Source: a virus
Length of the DNA stretch: 64,000 bases
Virus record (IMG/VR): IMGVR_UViG_3300013099_000017
Location: 1 to 64,000 of that record
Direction: 5' to 3' (one strand)
Shown: positions 11,297 to 62,254 of the stretch, in pieces
Position numbering within the stretch: position 1 is the stretch's first letter
Layout: every line of letters starts with the position of its first letter
Notes under the pieces: generated by a model
Databases searched by the model: none
What the model was told of the DNA's origin: nothing
What the model saw: the letters and a program-made list of their open reading frames with translations, nothing else
Position numbers and translations under genes: made by a program

Positions 11297-14200
11297 ATGC
11301 CAAAGAAAACGTTTAATACAGATCCTTATTTTGATGATTTTGATGAAAGTAAGAATTTTCATCAAATATTATATAAACCAAGATTTCCTATTCAAACAAG
11401 GGAAATGAATCAGCAACAATCTATTATAAAAAATCAGATTGAAAGATTTGGTGATCATATATTTAAGCATGGTTCTATCGTGGAAGATACTATTCCAAAA
11501 TATATCAATGATATGAATTATGTTAGATTGAAAGATTTGGATACAAATAACGAAGCTGTTAAAACTGAATTAATATTGGGTAAAAAATTAATTGGTAAAA
11601 CTACTGGAATTACTGCCAAATGTCAATTAGCAACCGATATTACAGAAAATGATCCACCAACAATTTTCATTAATTATTTAACCAGTTCACTAGATGGATT
11701 ACATAAAGTATTTGAAAATGGTGAAGAATTGATTGTGTATGATGATCAGAATAATCCAGTTTATTCATGTTATGTAAGATGTCCAACATGTATTGGTTCT
11801 GTTGAACCTGCTACTGAAACTATTTATCCTACTGGAAAATCTGCAATATTTACTATTACACAAGGTATTTATTATGTGTTTGGTAGTTTTGTTTATACTC
11901 CAACTCAAACAATCATTTTAAAGAAGTATGATATTGATCCGAGCGTTACGGTTGGATTAAATATTATTCAAACTATTGTTACTGAACATGATGATCAAAG
12001 TTTATTAGATAATGCTTTAGGATATCCAAATTATACAAGTCCTGGTGCTGATCGTTATAAAATTCAATTAAGTTTAGAAAAAATACCAAATGATTCACCA
12101 GAACAAGATAATTGGATAAATATTGCAGTTATTGAATTTGGTATATTAAAAGAAATCAAAGATAAACCTGAATATGCTGACATTATGGATATGATGGCCA
12201 GACGTACATATGATGAATCTGGTGATTATACAGTAAAACCATTTTTAGTTAATTTCAAAAATTTATTAAAATCATCAAAAGATTCAACTGATGGTATTTA
12301 TTGGGCTGATGAAACTACACCACCTGAAACATTAGAAGATTATAAAAATAGATTTATTGCTACAATGAGTGATGGTAAAGCATATGTTAAAGGATATGAA
12401 ATTGAAAGATTATCCAATTCAAATATATCTATTGAACGTGCAAGGGATGAAGGTGTTATTGAAGATACAGCTATCCGTTATGTTCAAGGAAATTACATTT
12501 ATGTTGCGTTAAATCCTCAATCAAATACATATCCTTTATATGATACTGCTACTGAAAAATATGCGGTGGATTTTGAAAATGTTTCATTCTATGATGATTA
12601 TAATGTATGGGAAAATGGAGTGCCTGCATCAAGTTCTATTGGTGTGGCAAAAGTTAAATCACAATTAAATACTGGTAAAACCATAAAAGATTTTAGTGGT
12701 GCTGTTGATGTTCCTGTATTCAAATTATATTTATTTGAAATGAATATTACTTCACCAAGCACATTTAATGATGTTAAATCTGTATACAAATCTGGTATTA
12801 ATACATTTGCATGTAAAGTTTTAACTGATGATGAATGGACAGAAATTGATGCTGGTGCTGGAAATGGTTCAGGTTTAGAAGAACCTAAAATTTATGATCC
12901 TGATTCTAATATGATGTTAAGTAAATTAGCAGAACCTTGGACAAGTGGAATTAATAATGTTACAATGACAACCAGAAAGAAATTTACTGGTCAATCTAAT
13001 GCTGGTGGTGAATTTACCTTTTCTACTGGTACAAATGAATTATTTGAATCATTTAATCCTAATAAATGGGTATTCTCTGAAAAAGATGGTACAGGTAATT
13101 ACATATATGTACCCGTGGATTCAGGTCAAGTTTCAATAACATCAAATGCAACAAACCAAGATTGTGTTGTAACAGGCTTTGGAACAAATCAACAATGTTG
13201 TGTTATTGTGGATATTATATCAAATAATGTCCCTTCAAAAACTAAAAACTTAATTTCAACAAGTCTTAATATTGAATTAACTTCTGCTAATTTTAAAGAA
13301 TGGCATTTATTAAATCAAGTTGATGGTAGACGTATATTGTCAGTAACAAATATTACTGATCTTGATTCTGCTAATTGGTTTGATGTAACTTCTGATTTCA
13401 TATTCAATGATGGTGCAAAAGATAATACATATGATTTATGTAAAATACAAAGAACATTAAATTCAGAACCTACTTATGGTGGTGATAGTAAAGCAATCTA
13501 TGAGGTTGTTTTTGAATATTTTGAACATTTAAATACTAACAATGGATATATGTTTACAGCTTCATCATATCAGTCAATGATTGATGATGATAATCAAGAT
13601 TTCGATTATGAAGATATTCCTTTATATGTTTCTCAAAATGGCGAGGACTATGAATTAAGACGTTGTTTAGATTTCCGTGTTGATGAAGCTGATGATGGTC
13701 AAGGGGGTCAATTTGTTGAAACTGGCTATATACCTTCACACGATTCAAACATAATTCATGATATTACATTTTATTTACCAAGAATTGATAAAATTGTTAT
13801 TGATTCTATAAGTAAAAAATTTATTGCGGTTAAAGGAATACCATCTTTAAAACCTATTGAACCAAAAACACCAAAAGGTGCAATGGCTTTATATACAGTT
13901 AATATTGCTCCATATACACTTGATGTTAAAAGAGATGTGTATAAAAAGTATGTGAATAATCGTAGATTCACTATGAGAGATATTAGTAAGATTGAAAAAC
14001 GTGTTGATAATTTAGAATATTACACAACATTTACTATGCTTGAAAAAGATGCTGAATCAACATCCGTTAAAGATGCTAATGGTTTGGATAGATTTAAAAA
14101 TGGTTTAATCACAGATAATTTTGCTAATTTTACTGCTTCTGATACTAAACATCCAGAATTCAATGGTGCTATTGATATTAAAAATTATGAAATGCGTCCA

Positions 14201-21579: not shown

Positions 21580-21635
21580 TCATTATTAACAGTGGAATTA
21601 TAACACTAGTTGAAATGTTGTCAACCCCTGTCAAG
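21580..21635. repeat. 56-bp dispersed direct repeat, copy 1 (copy 2 at 24311-24366)
   Basis: tcattattaacagtggaattata(a/g)cactagttgaaa(tg/cc)ttgtcaacccctgtcaag, 53/56 identical. Confidence 0.95.
21597..21624 (-). promoter_or_regulatory. Sigma70 consensus promoter, copy 1 of a duplicated element
   Basis: TTGACA-N16-TATAAT with extended TG, and a second TTGACA 10 bp upstream. Confidence 0.8.
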
Positions 21636-21712
21636 CATTTATTTTATAATATGAATATTTTGCATTGTTTATATGAATTTATTTCAATTATAATAAATAC
21701 CGAGACTTTTCA

Positions 21713-21767
21713 TAAGTCATTGATTTATAAGGATATTCTTATTATGCTCTAAGTCATTGATTTATAA
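21713..21767. repeat. 18-bp direct repeat taagtcattgatttataa x2
   Basis: Copies at 21713-21730 and 21750-21767. Confidence 0.95.
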
Positions 21768-21932
21768 CGAAAATGTACTTTTATTTGACGTTTAAATGGC
21801 GTTTTAATATGTGAATTGGTGTGGTAGGTAGGGTAAGTTTATTAAATGGTCATTTAAAGTGCATTTAATTTCAAAATTCTTTATTATTCAATAAGTTATC
21901 TCAATTTATACGCAAAGTTCAAAAATACAACA

Positions 21933-24310: not shown

Positions 24311-24366
24311 TCATTATTAACAGTGGAATTATAGCACTAGTTGAAACCTTGTCAACCCCTGTCAAG
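24311..24366. repeat. 56-bp dispersed direct repeat, copy 2
   Basis: See copy 1. Confidence 0.95.
24328..24355 (-). promoter_or_regulatory. Sigma70 consensus promoter, copy 2 of a duplicated element
   Basis: Same geometry as copy 1. Confidence 0.8.
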
Positions 24367-24425
24367 TAAAATAATTGGATTAATTAATAAAACATTGACA
24401 TATGTCAATGAAATGACGATATATC

Positions 24426-34920: not shown

Positions 34921-35539
34921 TTTAACAGAAGGTACAACAAAAAGTAATAGCAAGAAACAGAGTAGAGTTTCCAGACCAAAATCAGCACCACCATCCCCCA
35001 CTCCCATAGAAAAATTACCTTCATTGGGTATCTTTGAAATGTTTGAAGATGTTAAATCTATGGAACGTGCTACCAAAAATTCAGCATGTTATGACATATC
35101 ATCATATTTACCCAAAGGTAAAGCAATTAATGTATGGAATTTGAATAATCGTAAACGTGATGTATATTGTAAAAATGTATCACATCTTGAAACGGAATGT
35201 ATTGTTCTTGAACCACAAGATCGTGCATTAATTCCAACTGGTGTTCAATTGGATATTCCATTAAATTATTCTTTTAGATTACATCCGAGAAGTGGATTAT
35301 CTTTAAAAGAAGGAATTAAACTTAACAATTCCGAAGGTATTATTGATAGTGATTATTATCAGCAAGTATATGTAAGTGTGTTTAATTCTTCCGGTGCAAG
35401 AGTTTATATTGAAAATGGTGATCGTATCGCTCAGGGTGAATTACAATTAAGTGTTGTACATACAACCCGAAAAATGCGTAAACCCCCACAACAAAAAACA
35501 GATCGTGTTGGTGGAATTGGTTCAACTGGTAAAAAATAA
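34907..35539 (+). CDS. dut: Trimeric dUTPase
   Basis: T..SACYDI, IPTG, PRSGLS.K.GI...N..GIIDSDY, GDRIAQ, R.GG.GSTG motifs; likely ATG at 34907 after AGGAAG. Confidence 0.95.
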   Translation: MEIGNLTEGTTKSNSKKQSRVSRPKSAPPSPTPIEKLPSLGIFEMFEDVKSMERATKNSACYDISSYLPKGKAINVWNLNNRKRDVYCKNVSHLETECIVLEPQDRALIPTGVQLDIPLNYSFRLHPRSGLSLKEGIKLNNSEGIIDSDYYQQVYVSVFNSSGARVYIENGDRIAQGELQLSVVHTTRKMRKPPQQKTDRVGGIGSTGKK

Positions 35540-35586
35540 TATACCCACAATGGGATATATACAATATTATGTGTGTCTGCTATAAT
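35539..35586 (+). promoter_or_regulatory. CCCA-N3-TGGG palindrome promoter
   Basis: ATATACCCACAATGGGATATAT, then TGcTATAAT at 35578-35586. Confidence 0.7.
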
Positions 35587-45666: not shown

Positions 45667-45715
45667 TATATCCCATTGTGGGTATATAAATATATAATTA
45701 ATTATGTAATACTAT
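45666..45715 (+). promoter_or_regulatory. CCCA-N3-TGGG palindrome promoter
   Basis: ATATATCCCATTGTGGGTATATA-N21-TACTAT. Confidence 0.7.
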
Positions 45716-45753: not shown

Positions 45754-46161
45754 ATGTCGATTTATGTATATTCAGCAACATCAAAAACTTTGCCATTATC
45801 AATTAATGGTGAAATTGTTCAAGCGACATATTACAAATATACCCACAATCAATCATTAGAAAATGATTATAATTGGTTTGGTGAAAAATCTAAGGGGATT
45901 TTTAGTAAAATAAAATATTGGGCTGATCGTGCATTATCAAAGGCAAAAAGAGATAATGTTAAATATGTTATTGTTGGTGATGATGAATATCCTGATTTTC
46001 CACGTTCCGTATTTAAAGTAAGTTATGTTGATGATTTATCTTCCTTTATTTGGGATCATGATCCTAATCATTTACATACCCGTCTTGGTAGTTATCAAAA
46101 ATCGAAAATTGGTAAACGTGTTGTATATTTACCTTTACCTTCATCGAAAGGAAATCATTAA
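45754..46161 (+). CDS. Hypothetical protein, first gene of a promoter cassette
   Basis: ATG 45754 follows the conserved AAACTTCCAAAAGGAAA leader. Confidence 0.6.
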   Translation: MSIYVYSATSKTLPLSINGEIVQATYYKYTHNQSLENDYNWFGEKSKGIFSKIKYWADRALSKAKRDNVKYVIVGDDEYPDFPRSVFKVSYVDDLSSFIWDHDPNHLHTRLGSYQKSKIGKRVVYLPLPSSKGNH

Positions 46162-46307: not shown

Positions 46308-46477
46308 TGAAAAAATTTAATGTATCATTCACTTATAGAGAAGAAGATTTTGATGATGTCTATGAAGGTGAAAGTGAAGATGATGTTATTGCTGTTATTG
46401 AGTGGAATTATGAAACGGATTCTTTTTATGATAATCACTATATAAGTAATTTAGAAATTGAGGAAATTGTAGAATGA
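46307..46477 (+). CDS. Small acidic protein (56 aa, not in track)
   Basis: MKKFNVSFTYREEDFDDVYEGESEDDV... Confidence 0.5.
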   Translation: MKKFNVSFTYREEDFDDVYEGESEDDVIAVIEWNYETDSFYDNHYISNLEIEEIVE

Positions 46478-46893
46478 ATTATTATTCTTTTGTTGTGGAT
46501 ACAGATTCTTATGCTGGAAATTTTGAACGTGAAATGACAGCATATGTTACGGGTGTTCTTGGTGATTGTGAAGTTGGATTAGATGAATCGGTGTTGTTTC
46601 ATGATGAAATGGATTTAGATTTAGATGAATTGATGTATCAAAAACCAAATGAACAAGGTACTCTTAGACCATGTGCGATTGAAAATACAGGGATAGAAAT
46701 ATATGGTGGTGTTGCTATATATTTCTATGAAGATCCATGTGCATATCTTGATATGTTAAAAGAGCGTTCATTGGAATATGCTAAAAAGAATAACATTCAA
46801 ATATTTAGTTTTAGAGTTCAATATATTGAGGAAAGTATCAAAATTACAGAAATTGAATATGAATCATGTAAGGATAAATCATGGAACATTTAA
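46474..46893 (+). CDS. Hypothetical protein
   Basis: 139 aa, FVVDTDSYAGNFEREM.AY.TG. Confidence 0.6.
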   Translation: MNYYSFVVDTDSYAGNFEREMTAYVTGVLGDCEVGLDESVLFHDEMDLDLDELMYQKPNEQGTLRPCAIENTGIEIYGGVAIYFYEDPCAYLDMLKERSLEYAKKNNIQIFSFRVQYIEESIKITEIEYESCKDKSWNI

Positions 46894-46934
46894 TTGATTT
46901 AGATCAATGAAATTATATTCCAATGTGATATAGT
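46894..46934 (+). promoter_or_regulatory. FNR-box class II-type promoter
   Basis: TTGAT-TTAG-ATCAA (46894-46907), -10 TATAGT 46929-46934, no -35. Confidence 0.7.
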
Positions 46935-46973
46935 ATATCTGTAATTAAGAGAAACTTCCAAAAGGAAAATACA

Positions 46974-47339
46974 ATGAGAATGACAGAACAAGTTATTGAT
47001 GATCTGATTGAAAAAATGCCAAGTGGTTCCGGTATTGATTGTGATTATAGTTGGACAAAATCAAATGGTAAATTAATCCTTCATAACTCATTTCATAATA
47101 TGAATGATGATGGTTATTATGATGGTTATTCCGAGTTTAAAGTTCATTTAATTTTGAAAGATGATGGGGAATGGATTTTAGATAAAATTCGTTTTGCCAA
47201 AAGTATTACAGATCCCTCCACTTACAGAAAATATTCAAATTATATATTACTTGATTATCTTTACGATACTTATATATGGAATATTGAAGAACGTAATTTG
47301 AAAGTTGGGGATTTTAATAATGCAATGGTAGATTTCTAA
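46974..47339 (+). CDS. Conserved phage hypothetical protein
   Basis: PSGSGID...SFH.MN..GYYDG; follows FNR-box promoter and leader. Confidence 0.6.
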   Translation: MRMTEQVIDDLIEKMPSGSGIDCDYSWTKSNGKLILHNSFHNMNDDGYYDGYSEFKVHLILKDDGEWILDKIRFAKSITDPSTYRKYSNYILLDYLYDTYIWNIEERNLKVGDFNNAMVDF

Positions 47340-47635
47340 TGATTTTAGATGCTGATTATAATTATGGTGGTTTATTTGATTTTGTTTCTACTGCATTTCC
47401 TGAATATAAGAAAAATTCAAAATGGGGAAAACATAAAAGACGTTATGTTGAAATTTTGGAAATGAAATTCAAACATGATATGAATTTTGAAGAAATTGGT
47501 AATGAATTAATGAATTATCAAACTGGTAAAGTTGGTGTTTCATCAACAGCAGTAAGGGATTTATATAACAAAGCATTACGTTTATTAAAATCAAAAGGCA
47601 CAATACAAGAATTAAACATTGATAATTATATTTAA
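47339..47635 (+). CDS. Stand-alone sigma-70 region 4-like HTH protein
   Basis: R..EILEMKF...MNFEEIGNEL......VS...VRDLYNKALRLLK resembles sigma region 4.2 (TLEEIG...VSRERVRQI..KALRKL). Confidence 0.7.
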   Translation: MILDADYNYGGLFDFVSTAFPEYKKNSKWGKHKRRYVEILEMKFKHDMNFEEIGNELMNYQTGKVGVSSTAVRDLYNKALRLLKSKGTIQELNIDNYI

Positions 47636-47647
47636 TTCTGTTATTAT
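47619..47647 (+). promoter_or_regulatory. Sigma70 promoter (DUF2958 unit)
   Basis: TTGATA-N17-TATTAT with TG extension. Confidence 0.6.
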
Positions 47648-47678
47648 ATAATCTAACTTATCCATTAAAGGAAACAAA

Positions 47679-48086
47679 ATGTCAAACTTTAAAAAATCTG
47701 ATGCAGTTCAATCATTAAAAAATTTAAAACCATTTGTTCCAGCTTTTCAGTTATCTATTTTAGCAGGACTTATTGATGGTGAAGAAGGTCAATATTTTAT
47801 TGATACTGTTGTTGAATTGGATTATTTAATTCAACAAATGCCAAAAACTTATGAACAGGATGGAAAGGGTGATCAAGCTGTTGCTTATTTACATTATTTC
47901 ATGGGTGGTATGGATTGGTACATTACTGAAAAAGATATGGAAGATGAACAGTTTCAAGCCTTTGGTTTAGCTAATCTTGGTTATGGTGCTGAACTTGGTT
48001 ATATTTCTATTGAAGAACTAAAAGCAAATAATATTGAAATTGATTTACATTTTACACCAACAATGGTTGGCAATTTAAAGAAATAG
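47679..48086 (+). CDS. DUF2958-like protein
   Basis: MPKTYEQDGKGD.AVAYLHYF.GG.DWYITEKD, AFG.A.LG...ELGYISI.EL. Confidence 0.75.
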   Translation: MSNFKKSDAVQSLKNLKPFVPAFQLSILAGLIDGEEGQYFIDTVVELDYLIQQMPKTYEQDGKGDQAVAYLHYFMGGMDWYITEKDMEDEQFQAFGLANLGYGAELGYISIEELKANNIEIDLHFTPTMVGNLKK

Positions 48087-48391
48087 TGTTATACTTGTAT
48101 TTTATCACTTCACAGAAGGAAAACAAAATGTCCGATACTTATGACCAAGCTGAAAAAGCTATGAGAGATTTATTAGATGCTTCTAATGTTATGGGGTCTA
48201 ATGATGATATTGCTCAGGCTATTTCAAACGTGCTATTGAGAGAGCATAGAACGCTACAACAAGCATTTTTTCGTTCCTTTAAACAAGCTATGGATGGTTA
48301 TTCTAAAGGTGGCTCAGATGGTCGGAATGAGGGTGCTATTCAATTAGCAAAAGAAATCCATAACTCTGATGTTTATTTACCATTTGTTTAG
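48086..48391 (+). CDS. Hypothetical protein
   Basis: HRTLQQAF.R....DGRNE.A motif; the true start is probably the internal ATG (MSDTYDQ). Confidence 0.55.
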   Translation: MLYLYFITSQKENKMSDTYDQAEKAMRDLLDASNVMGSNDDIAQAISNVLLREHRTLQQAFFRSFKQAMDGYSKGGSDGRNEGAIQLAKEIHNSDVYLPFV

Positions 48392-48552
48392 GGAATATGA
48401 TTATGTATATTGTTCGTGATTTGGAAACGGGTCGTTATTTGATTAACCTATGATACAGTTGATGAAATTGAGAAAATTATCTTATCGTGGGATCATACTT
48501 GGCATGATTTTGAAGTTGTTAAATTAATTGTACATTCAAGAACAAACAGATC

Positions 48553-48594
48553 TTGATCTAGATCAATGTAATTTTGGATAAATTTTAATATAAT
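48553..48594 (+). promoter_or_regulatory. FNR-box class II-type promoter
   Basis: TTGAT-CTAG-ATCAA (48553-48566), -10 TATAAT 48589-48594. Confidence 0.75.
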
Positions 48595-48632
48595 ATAATC
48601 TGAATTGAGAAAAACTTCCAAAAGGAAATCCA

Positions 48633-48785
48633 ATGAACTTATTTGAATTAGACCAAATCATCAATCAACTGATTGAAGAAAATGATCCAAGTAATAATGA
48701 ATTAATTTCGTTTTATTACAGAAAACGTGATGAACTTGTTGTTGTCCTTTCTAAAAAAATTAATGAGATAATTAAAAATGCCTAA
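48633..48785 (+). CDS. Hypothetical protein (50 aa, not in track)
   Basis: ATG directly after the conserved leader; MNLFELDQIINQL... Confidence 0.55.
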   Translation: MNLFELDQIINQLIEENDPSNNELISFYYRKRDELVVVLSKKINEIIKNA

Positions 48786-49170
48786 TGTTAATATTACCGT
48801 GTATCATGTGATTGTTGGTGAACTTAATGTTGCCAATTGGAAATTAATTCGTGAATTGGCTTATAAAGCTGAGGACAATAAAAAAAGATTAACTGATATG
48901 TTTATCAATGGTGATTATTTTACTGCCGTTGCAGATATTACTAATTCTACATTAGATGATGCTTATCGTTTAACCAATAGCATCGAAGAAGGTTGGTGGA
49001 AAAATGAAGAAGTTACCCCACTATTTAAAGCAAGTGGTGCAAAGTCAACTGATATCGGTGATATAATGATGGTTGAAATTCCACTTGAAGCAAAAACAGA
49101 AAATGATGCAATCGCTCACTATGAATTATATGTAGTTGCTCCGATTGGTTTTGTTAAAATTGATGGATAA
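48778..49170 (+). CDS. YodL-like domain protein
   Basis: L..AY.LTN....W.....KSTDIGDIM.V......YVV..IGF.KI. Confidence 0.55.
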   Translation: MPNVNITVYHVIVGELNVANWKLIRELAYKAEDNKKRLTDMFINGDYFTAVADITNSTLDDAYRLTNSIEEGWWKNEEVTPLFKASGAKSTDIGDIMMVEIPLEAKTENDAIAHYELYVVAPIGFVKIDG

Positions 49171-49175
49171 TAATT

Positions 49176-49352
49176 ATGTTAAGATTAAAAGTTAAAGCAG
49201 AGGGCGATACTGAACAAGATTTGGTTAATGCTCTCGAAGAAGTAATTCGTTTAGTTGAAATTGGCAACCGTGAAGGATTTGATATGAATACTTCCGGTGA
49301 GTTCAATTTTGAACTTGAAGAAGATGATCTATTATATTTTCCGGAAGCATAA
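49176..49352 (+). CDS. Hypothetical protein (58 aa, not in track)
   Basis: MLRLKVKAEGDTEQDL..ALEEV.R....G..EG.D....G.FNF. Confidence 0.5.
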   Translation: MLRLKVKAEGDTEQDLVNALEEVIRLVEIGNREGFDMNTSGEFNFELEEDDLLYFPEA

Positions 49353-49359
49353 TGAAAGA

Positions 49360-49388
49360 TTGGTAATTTTATTTAATTGTGTTATACT
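49360..49388 (+). promoter_or_regulatory. Sigma70 promoter
   Basis: TTGGTA-N17-TATACT with TG extension. Confidence 0.6.
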
Positions 49389-49420
49389 ATGTACATATTA
49401 AGAACGGAAATTAATAAAAC

Positions 49421-49576
49421 ATGAAAAGGCTAAAGTTGAATCCTATGAAAAATCCAAGAAACCCATATTACAATCATCCTTTGATGTCTAAGTCTCATGC
49501 TCATGTAAAATCTGAGAAAGCTAAAAGACGTAAAAACAAGGTTGATTTAAATAAATCTGTTGAGCTGGAGAAATAA
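49421..49576 (+). CDS. Small basic protein (51 aa, not in track)
   Basis: RNPYYNHPLMSKSHAHVKSEKAKRRKNK; downstream of a sigma70 promoter. Confidence 0.5.
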   Translation: MKRLKLNPMKNPRNPYYNHPLMSKSHAHVKSEKAKRRKNKVDLNKSVELEK

Positions 49577-49577
49577 A

Positions 49578-49907
49578 ATGTTAGAATATGGTGATAGATA
49601 TATCTTAATTGAACATGGTGATGTATTTGCAGGTGGTTGGGATCAATTAATTGATTGTTTTGGAATTGATTCTGAAACACTTGAAGAATTTTGTCGTTTC
49701 CATGATTACACATATACACTCAGTTTATATAATTCTGCCGATAAACTTAATAACGAATTACATAAGTTGTACAAGTATTTGAGCCAACCAAATGAAATTG
49801 TTGATTCCAGCAACAAAGATTATGATGATGGAATTGATACCGGATTTGAACATATTGCTGAAAAACTAAAAGTGATTATTGAAAGTTTTGAAAAGGATAC
49901 TTATTAA
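49578..49907 (+). CDS. Hypothetical protein
   Basis: Likely start ATG 49578. Confidence 0.5.
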   Translation: MLEYGDRYILIEHGDVFAGGWDQLIDCFGIDSETLEEFCRFHDYTYTLSLYNSADKLNNELHKLYKYLSQPNEIVDSSNKDYDDGIDTGFEHIAEKLKVIIESFEKDTY

Positions 49908-50099
49908 ATGAATATTGGATCAAAGGTTTTAATTATTGGTGGTAATCATACAGGTGAATTTGGTACATATCTTTATCATAGTCATGATAGTGGTTATTAT
50001 GTGCCATTTGTTCTCTTGCCTGATGATCCTATTGATAAGTATTGTGGTGAACGTTTAAATATGAACTATCGTTGTGTATATGGTCGAGCAAGAAAATGA
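49908..50099 (+). CDS. Hypothetical KOW-like protein
   Basis: IGSKVLIIGG.H.GEFG. Confidence 0.5.
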   Translation: MNIGSKVLIIGGNHTGEFGTYLYHSHDSGYYVPFVLLPDDPIDKYCGERLNMNYRCVYGRARK

Positions 50100-50148
50100 T
50101 ATATCCCATTGTGGGTATATACTCCATTGTTAAATTATGAGATACTAT
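50099..50148 (+). promoter_or_regulatory. CCCA-N3-TGGG palindrome promoter
   Basis: ATATATCCCATTGTGGGTATATA-N21-TACTAT. Confidence 0.7.
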
Positions 50149-50205
50149 ACTTGTGGTGAGGGGAAAGGTTCCCCAATTAGATAAACTTCCAAAAGGAAAT
50201 TCAAA

Positions 50206-50562
50206 ATGGCTTATATTAGCAACGAAGATGTTAAAGAAATCAGAAACAATATTAAGAAAGCATTTCCAATTAAAGAAGGTTGGAAATTTTCAATCAGAAG
50301 GCTTAATCACAGTGAAGTAAATGTAGCCATTATGCAATCACCAAAATCACACGGCTTTGAAGGTGATGAACAAGTTAATCAATATTATATTGATGAACAT
50401 TATAAAGATTTGCCATTACAAAGAGAAATGTTGTCTAAACTTAATGACATCATTAAAGAAAAATGGTGGGATGAATCAGATTCTCAGAGTGATTATTTCC
50501 ATTGTGCTTATTACTATACAATCCATATCGGTAAATGGAATAAGGATTGTGTTTCTGTTTAA
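50206..50562 (+). CDS. LPD29-like (large polyvalent protein-associated) domain protein
   Basis: IR..IKK.FP..KFSIR....S.V.V.I, W.D.SDSQSDYFH.AYY..I.IGKW.K. Confidence 0.6.
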   Translation: MAYISNEDVKEIRNNIKKAFPIKEGWKFSIRRLNHSEVNVAIMQSPKSHGFEGDEQVNQYYIDEHYKDLPLQREMLSKLNDIIKEKWWDESDSQSDYFHCAYYYTIHIGKWNKDCVSV

Positions 50563-50603
50563 TTGATCTAGATCAATGTATTTTTTCTCAATCCTGATAT
50601 ACT
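50563..50603 (+). promoter_or_regulatory. FNR-box class II-type promoter
   Basis: TTGAT-CTAG-ATCAA (50563-50576), -10 TATACT 50598-50603. Confidence 0.75.
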
Positions 50604-50649
50604 GTATTTGTGATTGAGAAATAAGATAAACTTCCAAAAGGAAATCAAA

Positions 50650-50919
50650 ATGAGTAATTTTAATTCTTCCGTTATAAAAGAAATCGCTAATTGTACCGAA
50701 TATAATGATCATTGTCGGGCATTGATATTAGCATCCAAAATGTTGGGATATAGCAAACTTGAACAAGTTTTTACAAAAGTTGGCGAAATAGCAAACATTG
50801 AAGGTGGTTATGATTCAAAATTGATGGAATATCGTTATTCCCGATATCAAGAGTTAATGCTTCTTGCAGAAAATGACTTAACTGGTTTACAATTTCAAAA
50901 TCTTTATGGAGCATTTTAA
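50650..50919 (+). CDS. Hypothetical protein
   Basis: ATG 50650 after the conserved leader; YNDH..A. Confidence 0.6.
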   Translation: MSNFNSSVIKEIANCTEYNDHCRALILASKMLGYSKLEQVFTKVGEIANIEGGYDSKLMEYRYSRYQELMLLAENDLTGLQFQNLYGAF

Positions 50920-53843: not shown

Positions 53844-53892
53844 TATATACCCACAATGGGATATATACGAAAATGATATAATGTGTTAAGAT
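53843..53892 (+). promoter_or_regulatory. CCCA-N3-TGGG palindrome promoter
   Basis: ATATATACCCACAATGGGATATATA, then TGtTAAGAT at 53884-53892. Confidence 0.65.
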
Positions 53893-57076: not shown

Positions 57077-57115
57077 ATATGTATATGTGTATAAATAATC
57101 CAAAAGGAAAATATT

Positions 57116-57391
57116 ATGAAAGTTGTACCAATGTTAAATGAAGTGGGGAATGTAGTAAAGAACCAATACACTTATTATTTTGAAGGTTGTTATATACTTC
57201 AATCATATGATCGATGGACGGTAAAAATTGAAGGGGATGGTCAAATTTATCTTGATGAAAAATCATGGGATGCTTCAAAAACTACTGCAAAATACAGAAA
57301 TCAATTTTTGAATATGGGTACAAATGAAATTCATGAAAAAATTAAAACTGGTGAAATTAAAGTGATTAATCTTAATGGGGATTCATCATGA
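57116..57391 (+). CDS. Hypothetical protein
   Basis: NQY......LQSY...V......WD.S.TT.KYRNQFL. Confidence 0.6.
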   Translation: MKVVPMLNEVGNVVKNQYTYYFEGCYILQSYDRWTVKIEGDGQIYLDEKSWDASKTTAKYRNQFLNMGTNEIHEKIKTGEIKVINLNGDSS

Positions 57392-57854: not shown

Positions 57855-58054
57855 TAGCAACAAAAGCTGGAACAATAAATGCACTAATTATGATTGTCCG
57901 GAACATGTAAATAATTATCAAGTTGGTAATTGTAGACTTGGTATAAATTTCAGGGGATGTAAGATAGCTAAAAAAGCTAAAAAATATTTTAAATAATATC
58001 CCATTGTGTAATAATATAATCTGAATTGAGAGAAAACTTCCAAAAGGAAATGAA

Positions 58055-59404: not shown

Positions 59405-59644
59405 TTAATGTTTGTGTTGATGATCATCTTTATGTAAATGATCACCATCAACATGAAGATAACCATCAAAATCATCAAAGAAATCATCGTGATGAAGATA
59501 ATAATCTTCCAATAAATTATCATTTAACATACAATCACATTCACTATAATAAGTATATTTTGCATTTGTTGTTATATGATATCCTATAAAAAAGACTGCA
59601 ATAAGAAATAATATATATGTAATTTTCATAATTGTAATATTCAT
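59405..59644 (-). CDS. Membrane-anchored His/Asp-rich protein
   Basis: N-terminal hydrophobic helix, CDC, tail YLHHDDFFDDFDGYLHVDGDHLHKDDHQHKH; local base composition flips to minus-strand coding. Confidence 0.6.
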   Translation of the reverse strand: MNITIMKITYILFLIAVFFIGYHITTNAKYTYYSECDCMLNDNLLEDYYLHHDDFFDDFDGYLHVDGDHLHKDDHQHKH

Positions 59645-59749: not shown

Positions 59750-60001
59750 ATGGCAAATTTTAAAGCTCGTTTTGATAATGATACTTTTTTGAATTTTGGA
59801 ACAGTTAATGAAATTGTGAAATCCAAATCAACCGCAGGTGTTTTTATTGAAAGTATTGAAATCAATCCCATTGAATGTGGGGTTTTAACTCCAATAACTT
59901 TTAAATTTCTGGCTTTATTTGAAACTTTAACTTTGGATATAATTAACCGTTTGGAACACGGTGAATTTGATACACTCTTAAATGAAATGGATAGTGTATA
60001 A
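59750..60001 (+). CDS. Hypothetical protein
   Basis: 83-aa ORF with AAGGA RBS. Confidence 0.55.
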   Translation: MANFKARFDNDTFLNFGTVNEIVKSKSTAGVFIESIEINPIECGVLTPITFKFLALFETLTLDIINRLEHGEFDTLLNEMDSV

Positions 60002-62205: not shown

Positions 62206-62254
62206 AATATCCCATTGTGAGTATATACATTTATTAACTAATAAACGATACTAT
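62206..62254 (+). promoter_or_regulatory. CCCA-N3-TGGG-type palindrome promoter (one substitution)
   Basis: AATATCCCATTGTGAGTATATA-N21-TACTAT. Confidence 0.65.

Follow-up and report, generated by a model that had tools for sequence, protein, structure and literature searches.

FNR-type palindromes in exchangeable promoter cassettes of a T4-like phage: a possible link to a host CRP/FNR-family regulator

In a metagenomic contig of a T4-like phage, palindromes of the form TTGAT-N4-ATCAA (type A boxes) make up the upstream part of promoter cassettes that resemble PeSLs. The geometry of these boxes, together with the cassettes that carry them, suggests, without proving it, that a regulator of the CRP/FNR family supplied by the host may control accessory genes of the phage; we consider this reading plausible but tentative. 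That the boxes act as a strict oxygen switch is possible but doubtful.

The contig (IMG/VR record IMGVR_UViG_3300013099_000017; 144,243 bp, estimated 79% complete) was analysed in a window, the whole 64,000-nt stretch at its positions 1 to 64,000, and further scans were made over all 144,243 bp. Homologues of gp6, UvsW and gp43 and a gp46-like homologue identified the phage as T4-like, as had been claimed. The record is an IMG/VR metagenomic contig, not a coliphage, and with such an uncultivated contig E. coli FNR, or any host FNR, is not a given. A megablast search of the 45-52 kb region against phage records produced no matches. Relatives of the DNA polymerase had at most 42% identity in IMG/VR, and none were found in genome contigs. 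The same DNA polymerase is present on a contig of 0.2-1 Mb, and the related contig L121 reaches about 4.9 kb beyond the contig end. No pointer to the host came from the leader pattern described below, which in genome contigs gave seven single, apparently chance matches in unrelated MAGs, or from a protein atlas search with the C5-methyltransferase, which returned viral clusters only. An Rfam scan of the window found two tRNAs and nothing else.

About 22 cassettes of one build are spread between small variable ORFs of the contig. The order of parts is a palindrome, a weak -35 (aTGtaA), 17 bp, a -10 that is mostly TGn-extended, an optional GC-rich stem-loop, a leader with a Shine-Dalgarno sequence, and ATG. 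In six cassettes the palindrome slot holds a type A box; the commonest occupant of the slot is a type B palindrome. The features of the window are as follows.

45668 to 45687, no strand assigned: type B palindrome (ATATCCC..GGGTATAT class), which takes the promoter slot in place of type A, in the cassette before the ORF at 45754
46894 to 46907, no strand assigned: type A box 1 (TTGATTTAGATCAA), centre about -40.5, directly after the stop codon of ORF 46474-46893
46926 to 46934, plus strand: extended -10 of promoter 1 (TGa TATAGT), 21 nt after the box; hexamer at 46929-46934, weak -35 slot AATGAA
46952 to 46976, plus strand: shared leader with Shine-Dalgarno sequence (AAACTTCCAAAAGGAAA) and ATG of ORF 46974-47339
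48553 to 48566, no strand assigned: type A box 2 (TTGATCTAGATCAA), centre about -41.5
48589 to 48594, plus strand: -10 of promoter 2 (TATAAT), without TGn; a second, overlapping TATAAT at 48594-48599
48612 to 48635, plus strand: shared leader and ATG of ORF 48633-48785
50101 to 50120, no strand assigned: type B palindrome, in the cassette before ORF 50206-50562, with full stem-loop and leader
50563 to 50576, no strand assigned: type A box 3 (TTGATCTAGATCAA), centre about -40.5, starting right behind the stop codon of ORF 50206-50562
50595 to 50603, plus strand: extended -10 of promoter 3 (TGa TATACT); hexamer at 50598-50603
50628 to 50652, plus strand: shared leader and ATG of ORF 50650-50919
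62207 to 62226, no strand assigned: type B palindrome of another cassette

The original prediction placed TTGAT-N4-ATCAA at 46894, 48553 and 50563, and exactly these three matches were present in the window. Its estimate of 0.3 chance hits per 64 kb was somewhat low; shuffles of the window had a mean of 0.76 matches, with three or more in 2 of 100 shuffles. The scan of the entire contig found eight matches compared to 1.75 expected, six of them at promoters; the additional promoter copies, outside the window, start at 77281, 93723 and 98981. The six promoter copies share the form TTGAT(C/T)TAGATCAA and are all intergenic, while plus-strand ORFs of at least 45 aa leave about 9% of the contig uncovered. 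The remaining two matches (79251 and 139996) fall within coding sequence, in about the number expected by chance. Boxes with one mismatch (about 45 elsewhere in the contig) lie away from promoter cassettes, mostly in coding-looking sequence, and none is at a promoter. The combination of a box with an extended -10 at the correct spacing was observed five times over the whole contig, compared to 0.005 expected. Within the cassette, the type A box is the leftmost conserved part and adjoins upstream stop codons. The box itself contains TGA and TAG stops, and position 77284, the last of the RNA ligase 2 gene, falls within a box.

The predicted promoter geometry agreed with its earlier description. 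The hexamers TATAGT, TATAAT and TATACT follow the three boxes of the window after 21, 22 and 21 nt. With the first base of the -10 set as -12, the box centres fall at -40.5, -41.5 and -40.5, and all six copies of the contig are centred at -40.5 or -41.5 relative to the predicted -10, a class II-like position. The -35 element, said to be missing, is indeed poor: the slot hexamers of the six promoters (AATGAA, ATGTAA, AATGTA, ATGTAA, AGGTAA and AATGTT) have at most three of six matches to TTGACA. As a candidate -35, TTGATC was ruled out because 29-30 bp would separate it from the -10. An extended -10 (TGn) was found at five of six promoters on the contig, including two of three in the window, so that these promoters could function independently of an activator and may be constitutive. 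At galP1, an extended -10 occurs together with CRP at -41.5. The exact common leader AAACTTCCAAAAGGAAA, then ATG, follows each of the three window promoters, also as described.

Comparison of the copies showed the type A box to be an island of conservation, under sequence-specific constraint. Within the box the pairwise identity was 0.98, compared to 0.45 in the spacer and 0.31 over the 20 nt that precede the box, with a random expectation of 0.30; the spacing from box to -10 is strictly constant despite the diverged spacer sequence. The upstream elements form discrete classes with invariant arms rather than a continuum. The central CTAG is kept in five of six copies on the contig and in most relatives. 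TCTAGA occurs five times on the contig, each time in a box, although CTAG is avoided (observed/expected 0.42). E. coli FNR does not need the central CTAG. Its conservation beyond that need may point to a binder whose requirements differ from those of FNR, or to a different role of the box.

Type B palindromes are always associated with promoters and occur in both orientations; an 11-nt partial match at 137135 is coding. They resemble no CRP/FNR site, and the slot is thus used by at least one other factor or function. The idea that they are stand-alone terminators at gene ends was rejected, as the full-length minus-strand copies are all inverted within plus-strand promoters.

Conservation in related phage contigs, proposed as a check of the original prediction, was observed: the -40.5/-41.5 position is kept at 65-85% nucleotide identity. 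For example, the box is retained before orthologues of genes 50650 (in relative L123) and 99078 (in L092). The relatives also hold the CRP consensus TGTGA-N6-TCACA in the same slot, which fits recognition by CRP/FNR-family proteins. These CRP-type boxes are centred at -41.5, -52.5 or -61.5. The offsets of 11 and 20 bp correspond to about one and two turns of the helix, and in one -41.5/-52.5 pair the difference is an indel of exactly 11 bp. Those at -52.5 adjoin a perfect TTGACA/17/TGn-GATAAT promoter, which should need no activator. Some of these boxes could be terminators, e.g., the one in L083, which has a fold of -10.7 kcal/mol and a T-run. All three palindrome classes occur together in single relatives (L092 and L113). 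In IMG/VR, the box-plus-leader pattern gave chance coding matches only, and the leader alone one true relative, L023.

Orthologous junctions showed that cassettes have been swapped, gained and lost between relatives. The junction 48391/48633 has a type A box here versus a CRP-type box with TTGACA in L084. Before gene 93823, the studied contig has type A, L097 an inverted type B, and L128 no promoter. Conversely, the orthologue of 48128 in L088 is preceded by a type A cassette that the studied contig lacks at this place.

Setting aside the two coding matches, type A boxes were found only at promoters of small accessory genes. The genes after cassettes are mostly ORFans without a link to anaerobiosis, and most early genes have no recognisable family. 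Two gene labels of the original prediction were not supported: the "sigma-4" ORF 47339-47635 scored 19.9 bits where Pfam sets a cut-off of 24.1, with no PDB relative and no PHROG, and no YodL match was found anywhere in the contig. A search of the contig for Crp-HTH, cNMP, HTH_3, HTH_17, RHH_1, Sigma70_r4_2, MotA and AsiA found no such domain. This disfavours a recognisable binder encoded by the phage; with the contig about 79% complete, a phage regulator could sit in the missing part.

Under the host-regulator explanation, the cassettes would split the accessory genome into small transcription units, and the type A palindrome would be a putative DNA operator to which a dimeric host regulator of the CRP/FNR family binds. 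From its place near -41.5, this regulator would stimulate RNA polymerase in the class II manner, and the accessory operons would come to depend on a signal of the host. Where a regulator is specific to TTGAT-N4-ATCAA, the usual signal is low oxygen, NO or redox state. We infer the binding of a protein to the box, its CRP/FNR family membership and oxygen as the signal from the features given above. The suggestion that the phage uses the host oxygen sensor stood in part. The constrained boxes, their predicted class II position, the weak -35 and the boxes of relatives were borne out; the idea of anoxia logic specific to certain genes fared worse, as orthologous junctions with a different upstream element or no promoter argue against it. 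A wider and equally doubtful proposal is that PeSL-type cassettes are interchangeable sensor versions (FNR-type, CRP-type and the third palindrome), whose swapping would rewire the inputs of accessory modules. The inputs would then be oxygen/redox, cAMP/carbon or a further signal, and a single symmetric substitution (TTGA to GTGA) would be enough to exchange one input for the other.

Among other explanations, chance in AT-rich DNA, or recent functionless duplication, is close to negligible. The shuffles that reach three matches and the expected number of coding matches are compatible with it, but the frequency of boxes with a correctly spaced extended -10, the intergenic location of all six copies and the retention of the box in relatives are not; as the flanks are diverged, the copies are not recent duplicates. 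We regard as rather unlikely that the palindrome is the operator of a dimeric regulator, an activator or an early shut-off repressor, encoded by one of the phage ORFans, with the FNR match due to convergence or mimicry. Such a regulator would exert middle-mode-like control in a T4-like phage without MotA/AsiA, neither of which was found in the contig. It would account for the maintenance of all 14 box positions, central CTAG included, beyond what FNR needs, and for a slot that also holds the phage-specific type B palindrome at promoters in either orientation; the many early genes of no recognisable family and the incomplete contig leave room for it. On the other hand, eight family searches over 144 kb revealed no recognisable DNA-binding domain, the three classes in single relatives would require three phage regulators, and two of the classes exactly equal the two specificities that are best known within a single host family.

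Less probable still is that the palindrome is a PeSL stem-loop only, acting as a hairpin in RNA or DNA, as a weak terminator or insulator, or as a point of homology or recombination at which cassettes are shuffled, with no transcription factor involved and with constitutive extended -10 early promoters. The architecture is that of published PeSLs (PMC4122927). The replacement, gain or loss of cassettes at orthologous junctions is consistent with this explanation, as are the leftmost position of the box next to upstream stops, the stop codons it carries (with the RNA ligase 2 end within one box), the extended -10 at five of six promoters, and the CRP-type boxes of relatives that fold well and precede T-runs. 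However, type A boxes form as RNA only weak hairpins, from -1.7 to -5.4 kcal/mol, without a U-tract, and the flanking bases do not lengthen the pairing consistently. Their arms are invariant rather than covarying while the neighbouring sequence is random, and the spacing to the -10 is constant while the spacer has diverged. An exact known protein-site consensus in two sister classes would also be unlikely for an arbitrary hairpin.

If a CRP/FNR-family protein of the host does bind the boxes, a virulent T4-like phage would read host physiology via host global regulators in choosing its accessory modules. As the promoter cassettes move between genes, regulation could evolve by cassette exchange, and PeSL stem-loops would gain a regulatory role beyond termination and recombination. 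Should the phage itself encode the binder, this protein would be a candidate for exerting middle-mode control in those T4-like phages in which MotA/AsiA are missing.

Class II FNR/CRP promoters of Enterobacteria include narG, nirB and dmsA (FNR) and galP1 (CRP, extended -10). The promoters described here resemble them in a perfect TTGAT-N4-ATCAA, whose predicted centre is near -41.5, in a weak -35 and in a -10 that is good and often extended. They differ in the conserved central CTAG and in their setting, with mobile cassettes of a lytic phage and ORFans instead of respiratory genes. With the MotA/AsiA system of T4 they share a box, here a putative activator box, instead of a -35 and a retained, often extended sigma70 -10. 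The MotA box of T4 middle promoters, however, is asymmetric (TGCTT) and centred at -30 (PMC2988021), whereas here the palindrome lies at about -41, and the contig gave no MotA_activ or AsiA match.

PeSLs are known from the T4-like phages RB49/phi1, PST/T4 and nt-1/KVP40 (PMC2839356, PMC4122927). In the published description, a stem-loop lies just 5' of a sigma70-like early promoter, with a Shine-Dalgarno sequence and ATG at the 3' end, in hyperplastic regions and in association with indels (PMC4122927). The cassettes studied here likewise have a palindrome or stem-loop 5' of a sigma70-type promoter and a Shine-Dalgarno sequence with a start codon at the 3' end; they occur in many dispersed copies between small variable ORFs and are associated with insertion, deletion and replacement. 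The published accounts treat PeSL stem-loops as terminators whose stems are lineage-specific, and not as sites for transcription factors (PMC2839356, PMC4122927), and these stem-loops precede a good -35, whereas here the palindrome overlaps the -35 slot. Further differences are the discrete classes (the FNR consensus, the CRP consensus in relatives, and a third class) and the second GC-rich stem-loop and 17-nt invariant leader after the promoter.

The original statement that no such case had been described in T4-like phages needs qualifying, since sites for NtcA, a regulator of the CRP/FNR family, were predicted in all 16 T4-like cyanophages analysed (PMC3037559). The NtcA sites have the form GTA-N8-TAC, respond to nitrogen status in a known host and were not reported in interchangeable cassettes (PMC3037559). 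Common to both systems are multiple sequence-inferred sites for a global regulator of the CRP/FNR family of the host before genes of a lytic T4-like phage. If the host-regulator reading is true, the cyanophage precedents of NtcA and PhoB would be extended to oxygen/redox and cAMP-type inputs.

Within the window, a pattern scan returned exactly three copies of the FNR-type box TTGAT-N4-ATCAA (type A), at 46894, 48553 and 50563, compared to 0.76 expected from shuffled window sequences (three or more matches in 2 of 100 shuffles). The original prediction had described these boxes as replacing the -35 element of accessory-gene promoters, and its details held. The -10 hexamers, TATAGT, TATAAT and TATACT, follow the box by 21, 22 and 21 nt, no good -35 is read at any of the three promoters, and all three have the invariant leader AAACTTCCAAAAGGAAA and then ATG. 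With the first base of the -10 taken as -12, the box centers fall at -40.5, -41.5 and -40.5. In the whole contig (G000, whose coordinates run past the window) there were eight perfect matches, while 1.75 were expected. Two of them (79251 and 139996) lie within coding sequence and differ from the other six in the central bases.

Intergenic type A boxes, of the form TTGAT(C/T)TAGATCAA
46894
48553
50563
77281
93723
98981

All six intergenic boxes are located 21-22 nt ahead of a -10, which is extended in five cases. About 45 one-mismatch boxes are scattered over the contig, mostly in coding-looking sequence, and none of them is at a promoter. Both strands of the palindrome contain the stops TGA and TAG, so an ORF running into the box can be closed in two of its three frames; in one box, positions 2-4 (G000 77282-77284, in segment L138 of the contig) are the TGA that ends the RNA ligase 2 gene (76244-77284).

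Among the six copies, identity was 98% in the box, 45% in the spacer and 31%, the random level, in the 20 nt upstream. Every one of the five TCTAGA sites of the contig falls inside a box, even though the tetramer CTAG is avoided (observed/expected 0.42). The conserved box next to a random upstream flank, together with the confinement of TCTAGA to the boxes, argues that type A is maintained by sequence-specific selection and not by recent duplication. Strong depletion of several 4-bp palindromes was seen contig-wide: CGCG is absent (8.6 expected), the observed/expected ratios are 0.13 for GGCC, 0.27 for GCGC and 0.56 for AGCT, and GATC is mildly depleted (0.80), a pattern consistent with restriction avoidance.

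Approximately 22 promoters of the contig have one common build, in the order palindrome, weak -35, 17 bp, -10 (mostly extended, TGn-GATA(A/C)T), optional GGGG..CCCC stem-loop, leader with a Shine-Dalgarno sequence, and ATG. The upstream slot is occupied either by type A (6 copies) or by a second palindrome, type B (~19 copies), of the ATATCCC..GGGTATAT class with arms ATAYCY/RGRTAT. Type B copies are promoter-associated without exception, occur in either orientation, and always precede a TATACA-like -35 situated 17 bp ahead of the -10. After inversion an RNA hairpin would no longer have its G.U pairs, so type B appears to behave like a DNA operator.

Type B palindromes
35539-35558
45668-45687
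50101-50120
53845-53864
57996-58008, truncated copy
62207-62226
~13 further copies, past the window

Other promoter types were observed as well. A T4-type late promoter, TATAAATA, is positioned at 57090-57097 and is followed directly by a leader variant and a gene that begins at 57117. A near-consensus sigma70 promoter occurs four times, with TTGACA 16-17 bp ahead of TATAAT and the -35 in tandem in at least three copies.

Near-consensus sigma70 promoters
~21600-21640, minus strand
24330-24408, minus strand
G000 ~87440-87470, plus strand
G000 134651-134745, plus strand

A palindrome, TTGACATATGTCAA, precedes two of these four, and a ~100-bp repeat (21706-21804 and 87256-87354) lies close to such promoters and is also present in the relatives L095 and L127. 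The repeat and promoter copies could represent a small RNA or true immediate-early promoters.

The contig, of which the window makes up the first 64 kb, is linear, 144,243 bp long, with 29% G+C and an estimated completeness of 79% (IMG/VR record). Genes for a gp6-like baseplate protein, UvsW, a gp46-like protein and a family B polymerase mark the phage as a T4-like myovirus, though a distant one; the nearest polymerases are those of marine cyanomyoviruses, at 41% identity. Past the window we found genes for RNase H, RNA ligases, DNA ligase, NAMPT, an intein-bearing DnaB-like replicative helicase with a LAGLIDADG homing-endonuclease insert (L140:7056-9425 = G000 111056-113425) and an intein-bearing NrdA, the class I ribonucleotide reductase large subunit (L141:2405-5746 = G000 126405-129746), as well as a gene matching the Druantia DruA family at 77 bits (L141:18046-19278, G000 142046-143278); L140 and L141 are segments of the contig. 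The genes served by type A promoters are ORFans (DUF2958, LPD29, AAA_33 kinase and others) and differ between relatives. Two labels given to such genes were not sustained: the "sigma-4" ORF scored 19.9 bits against a threshold of 24.1, with no PDB relative found, and for the "YodL-like" label a search of the contig gave no YodL match.

Megablast and polymerase searches found no close relatives in the phage or IMG/VR collections. A leader scan of metagenomes detected ~35 short contigs, all from a small number of JGI samples, with 65-85% nucleotide identity, local synteny and cassettes of the same build. One of them, L121 (Ga0164318_10007535), matches the final 5.6 kb of the contig at 99.9% identity and runs ~4.9 kb past its end (L121 1-4888), into sequence common to L023 and L090. 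There is also a record of the DNA polymerase, identical in sequence, on a contig of 0.2-1 Mb, so a complete genome probably exists.

Type A centered at -40.5/-41.5 recurs in relatives L088, L092 and L123, and a TTGAC half-site variant in L097, L113 and L128; the box is kept ahead of orthologues of genes 50650 (L123) and 99078 (L092). A third class in the slot of relatives, type C, is TGTGA-N6-TCACA, often flanked by AA(A/G) and (C/T)TT, and matches the CRP consensus.

Type C boxes by center
-41.5, in four different promoters, directly adjacent to a degenerate -35
-52.5, six promoters, 9 nt ahead of a perfect TTGACA
-61.5, one promoter

One -41.5/-52.5 pair is exactly an 11-bp indel apart. All three types occur together on single contigs (L092, L113). 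At the 48391/48633 junction the phage contig has type A, while L084 has a CRP-type box plus TTGACA; before gene 93823, the phage contig has type A and L097 has type B, inverted, while L128 lacks a promoter; and one type A cassette of L088 has no counterpart in the phage contig. Because the upstream element varies at orthologous junctions, the cassettes are mobile modules. The sole perfect TGTGA-N6-TCACA of the phage contig (59702-59717) is in a divergent intergenic region, between an apparent small minus-strand ORF (~59410-59630, by eye) and the gene starting at 59751, with no -10 at class II spacing. The unrelated viral contig L143 (IMGVR_UViG_3300007747_000009, 108.9 kb, 35% G+C) has at 11303-11345 a terminator followed by an exact copy of the 14-mer and, after 23 nt, an extended -10, possibly an independent instance of this promoter design.

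The type A box is predicted to be an operator for a CRP/FNR-family regulator of the host, a reading we consider quite possible but hold tentatively. Types A and C are exact matches to the two canonical specificities of this family and differ at the discriminating base pair (TTGA vs GTGA); the arms are invariant beside random flanks, the spacing to the -10 is rigid despite diverged spacers, and the box positions are offset by roughly whole helical turns. An extended -10 is compatible with activator dependence, as galP1 combines it with CRP at -41.5. No Crp-HTH, cNMP, HTH_3, HTH_17, RHH, sigma region 4, MotA or AsiA domain was recognisable in the ~79% complete contig, which favors a host factor over a phage-encoded binder; the latter is unlikely, although it could be one of the ORFans or be encoded in the roughly one-fifth of the genome that the contig lacks. 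Slightly less likely again is a purely structural or recombinational role in the cassette, as type A forms only a weak fold as RNA (-1.7 to -5.4 kcal/mol) and lacks a U-tract. Chance is extremely improbable, with a box plus extended -10 at 21-22 nt spacing expected 0.005 times in the whole contig, and other roles make up a small remainder.

Whether a host regulator at these boxes would sense oxygen, as the original prediction of an anoxia switch by FNR had it, is a separate matter, and a true oxygen/redox switch seems somewhat doubtful. The conserved central CTAG is more than E. coli FNR needs, type B shows that the slot also serves another factor or function, and the ORFan targets change between relatives. 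The -52.5 CRP-type boxes, some of which could be terminators, adjoin near-consensus promoters, which also weighs against a specific FNR switch.

Among known systems, the PeSLs of T4-like phages are composite stem-loop/early-promoter/SD cassettes through which shuffling occurs in hyperplastic regions (PMC4122927). The cassettes of this phage have the same anatomy and, structurally, belong to the PeSL kind; what appears new is a palindrome lying across the -35 slot, in versions that match transcription-factor consensus sites. In function, the type A promoters are candidates for class II FNR/CRP promoters, which they resemble in sequence. A published precedent, likewise based on sequence, for lytic T4-like phages using host regulators of the CRP/FNR family is provided by the NtcA sites of cyanomyoviruses (PMC3037559).
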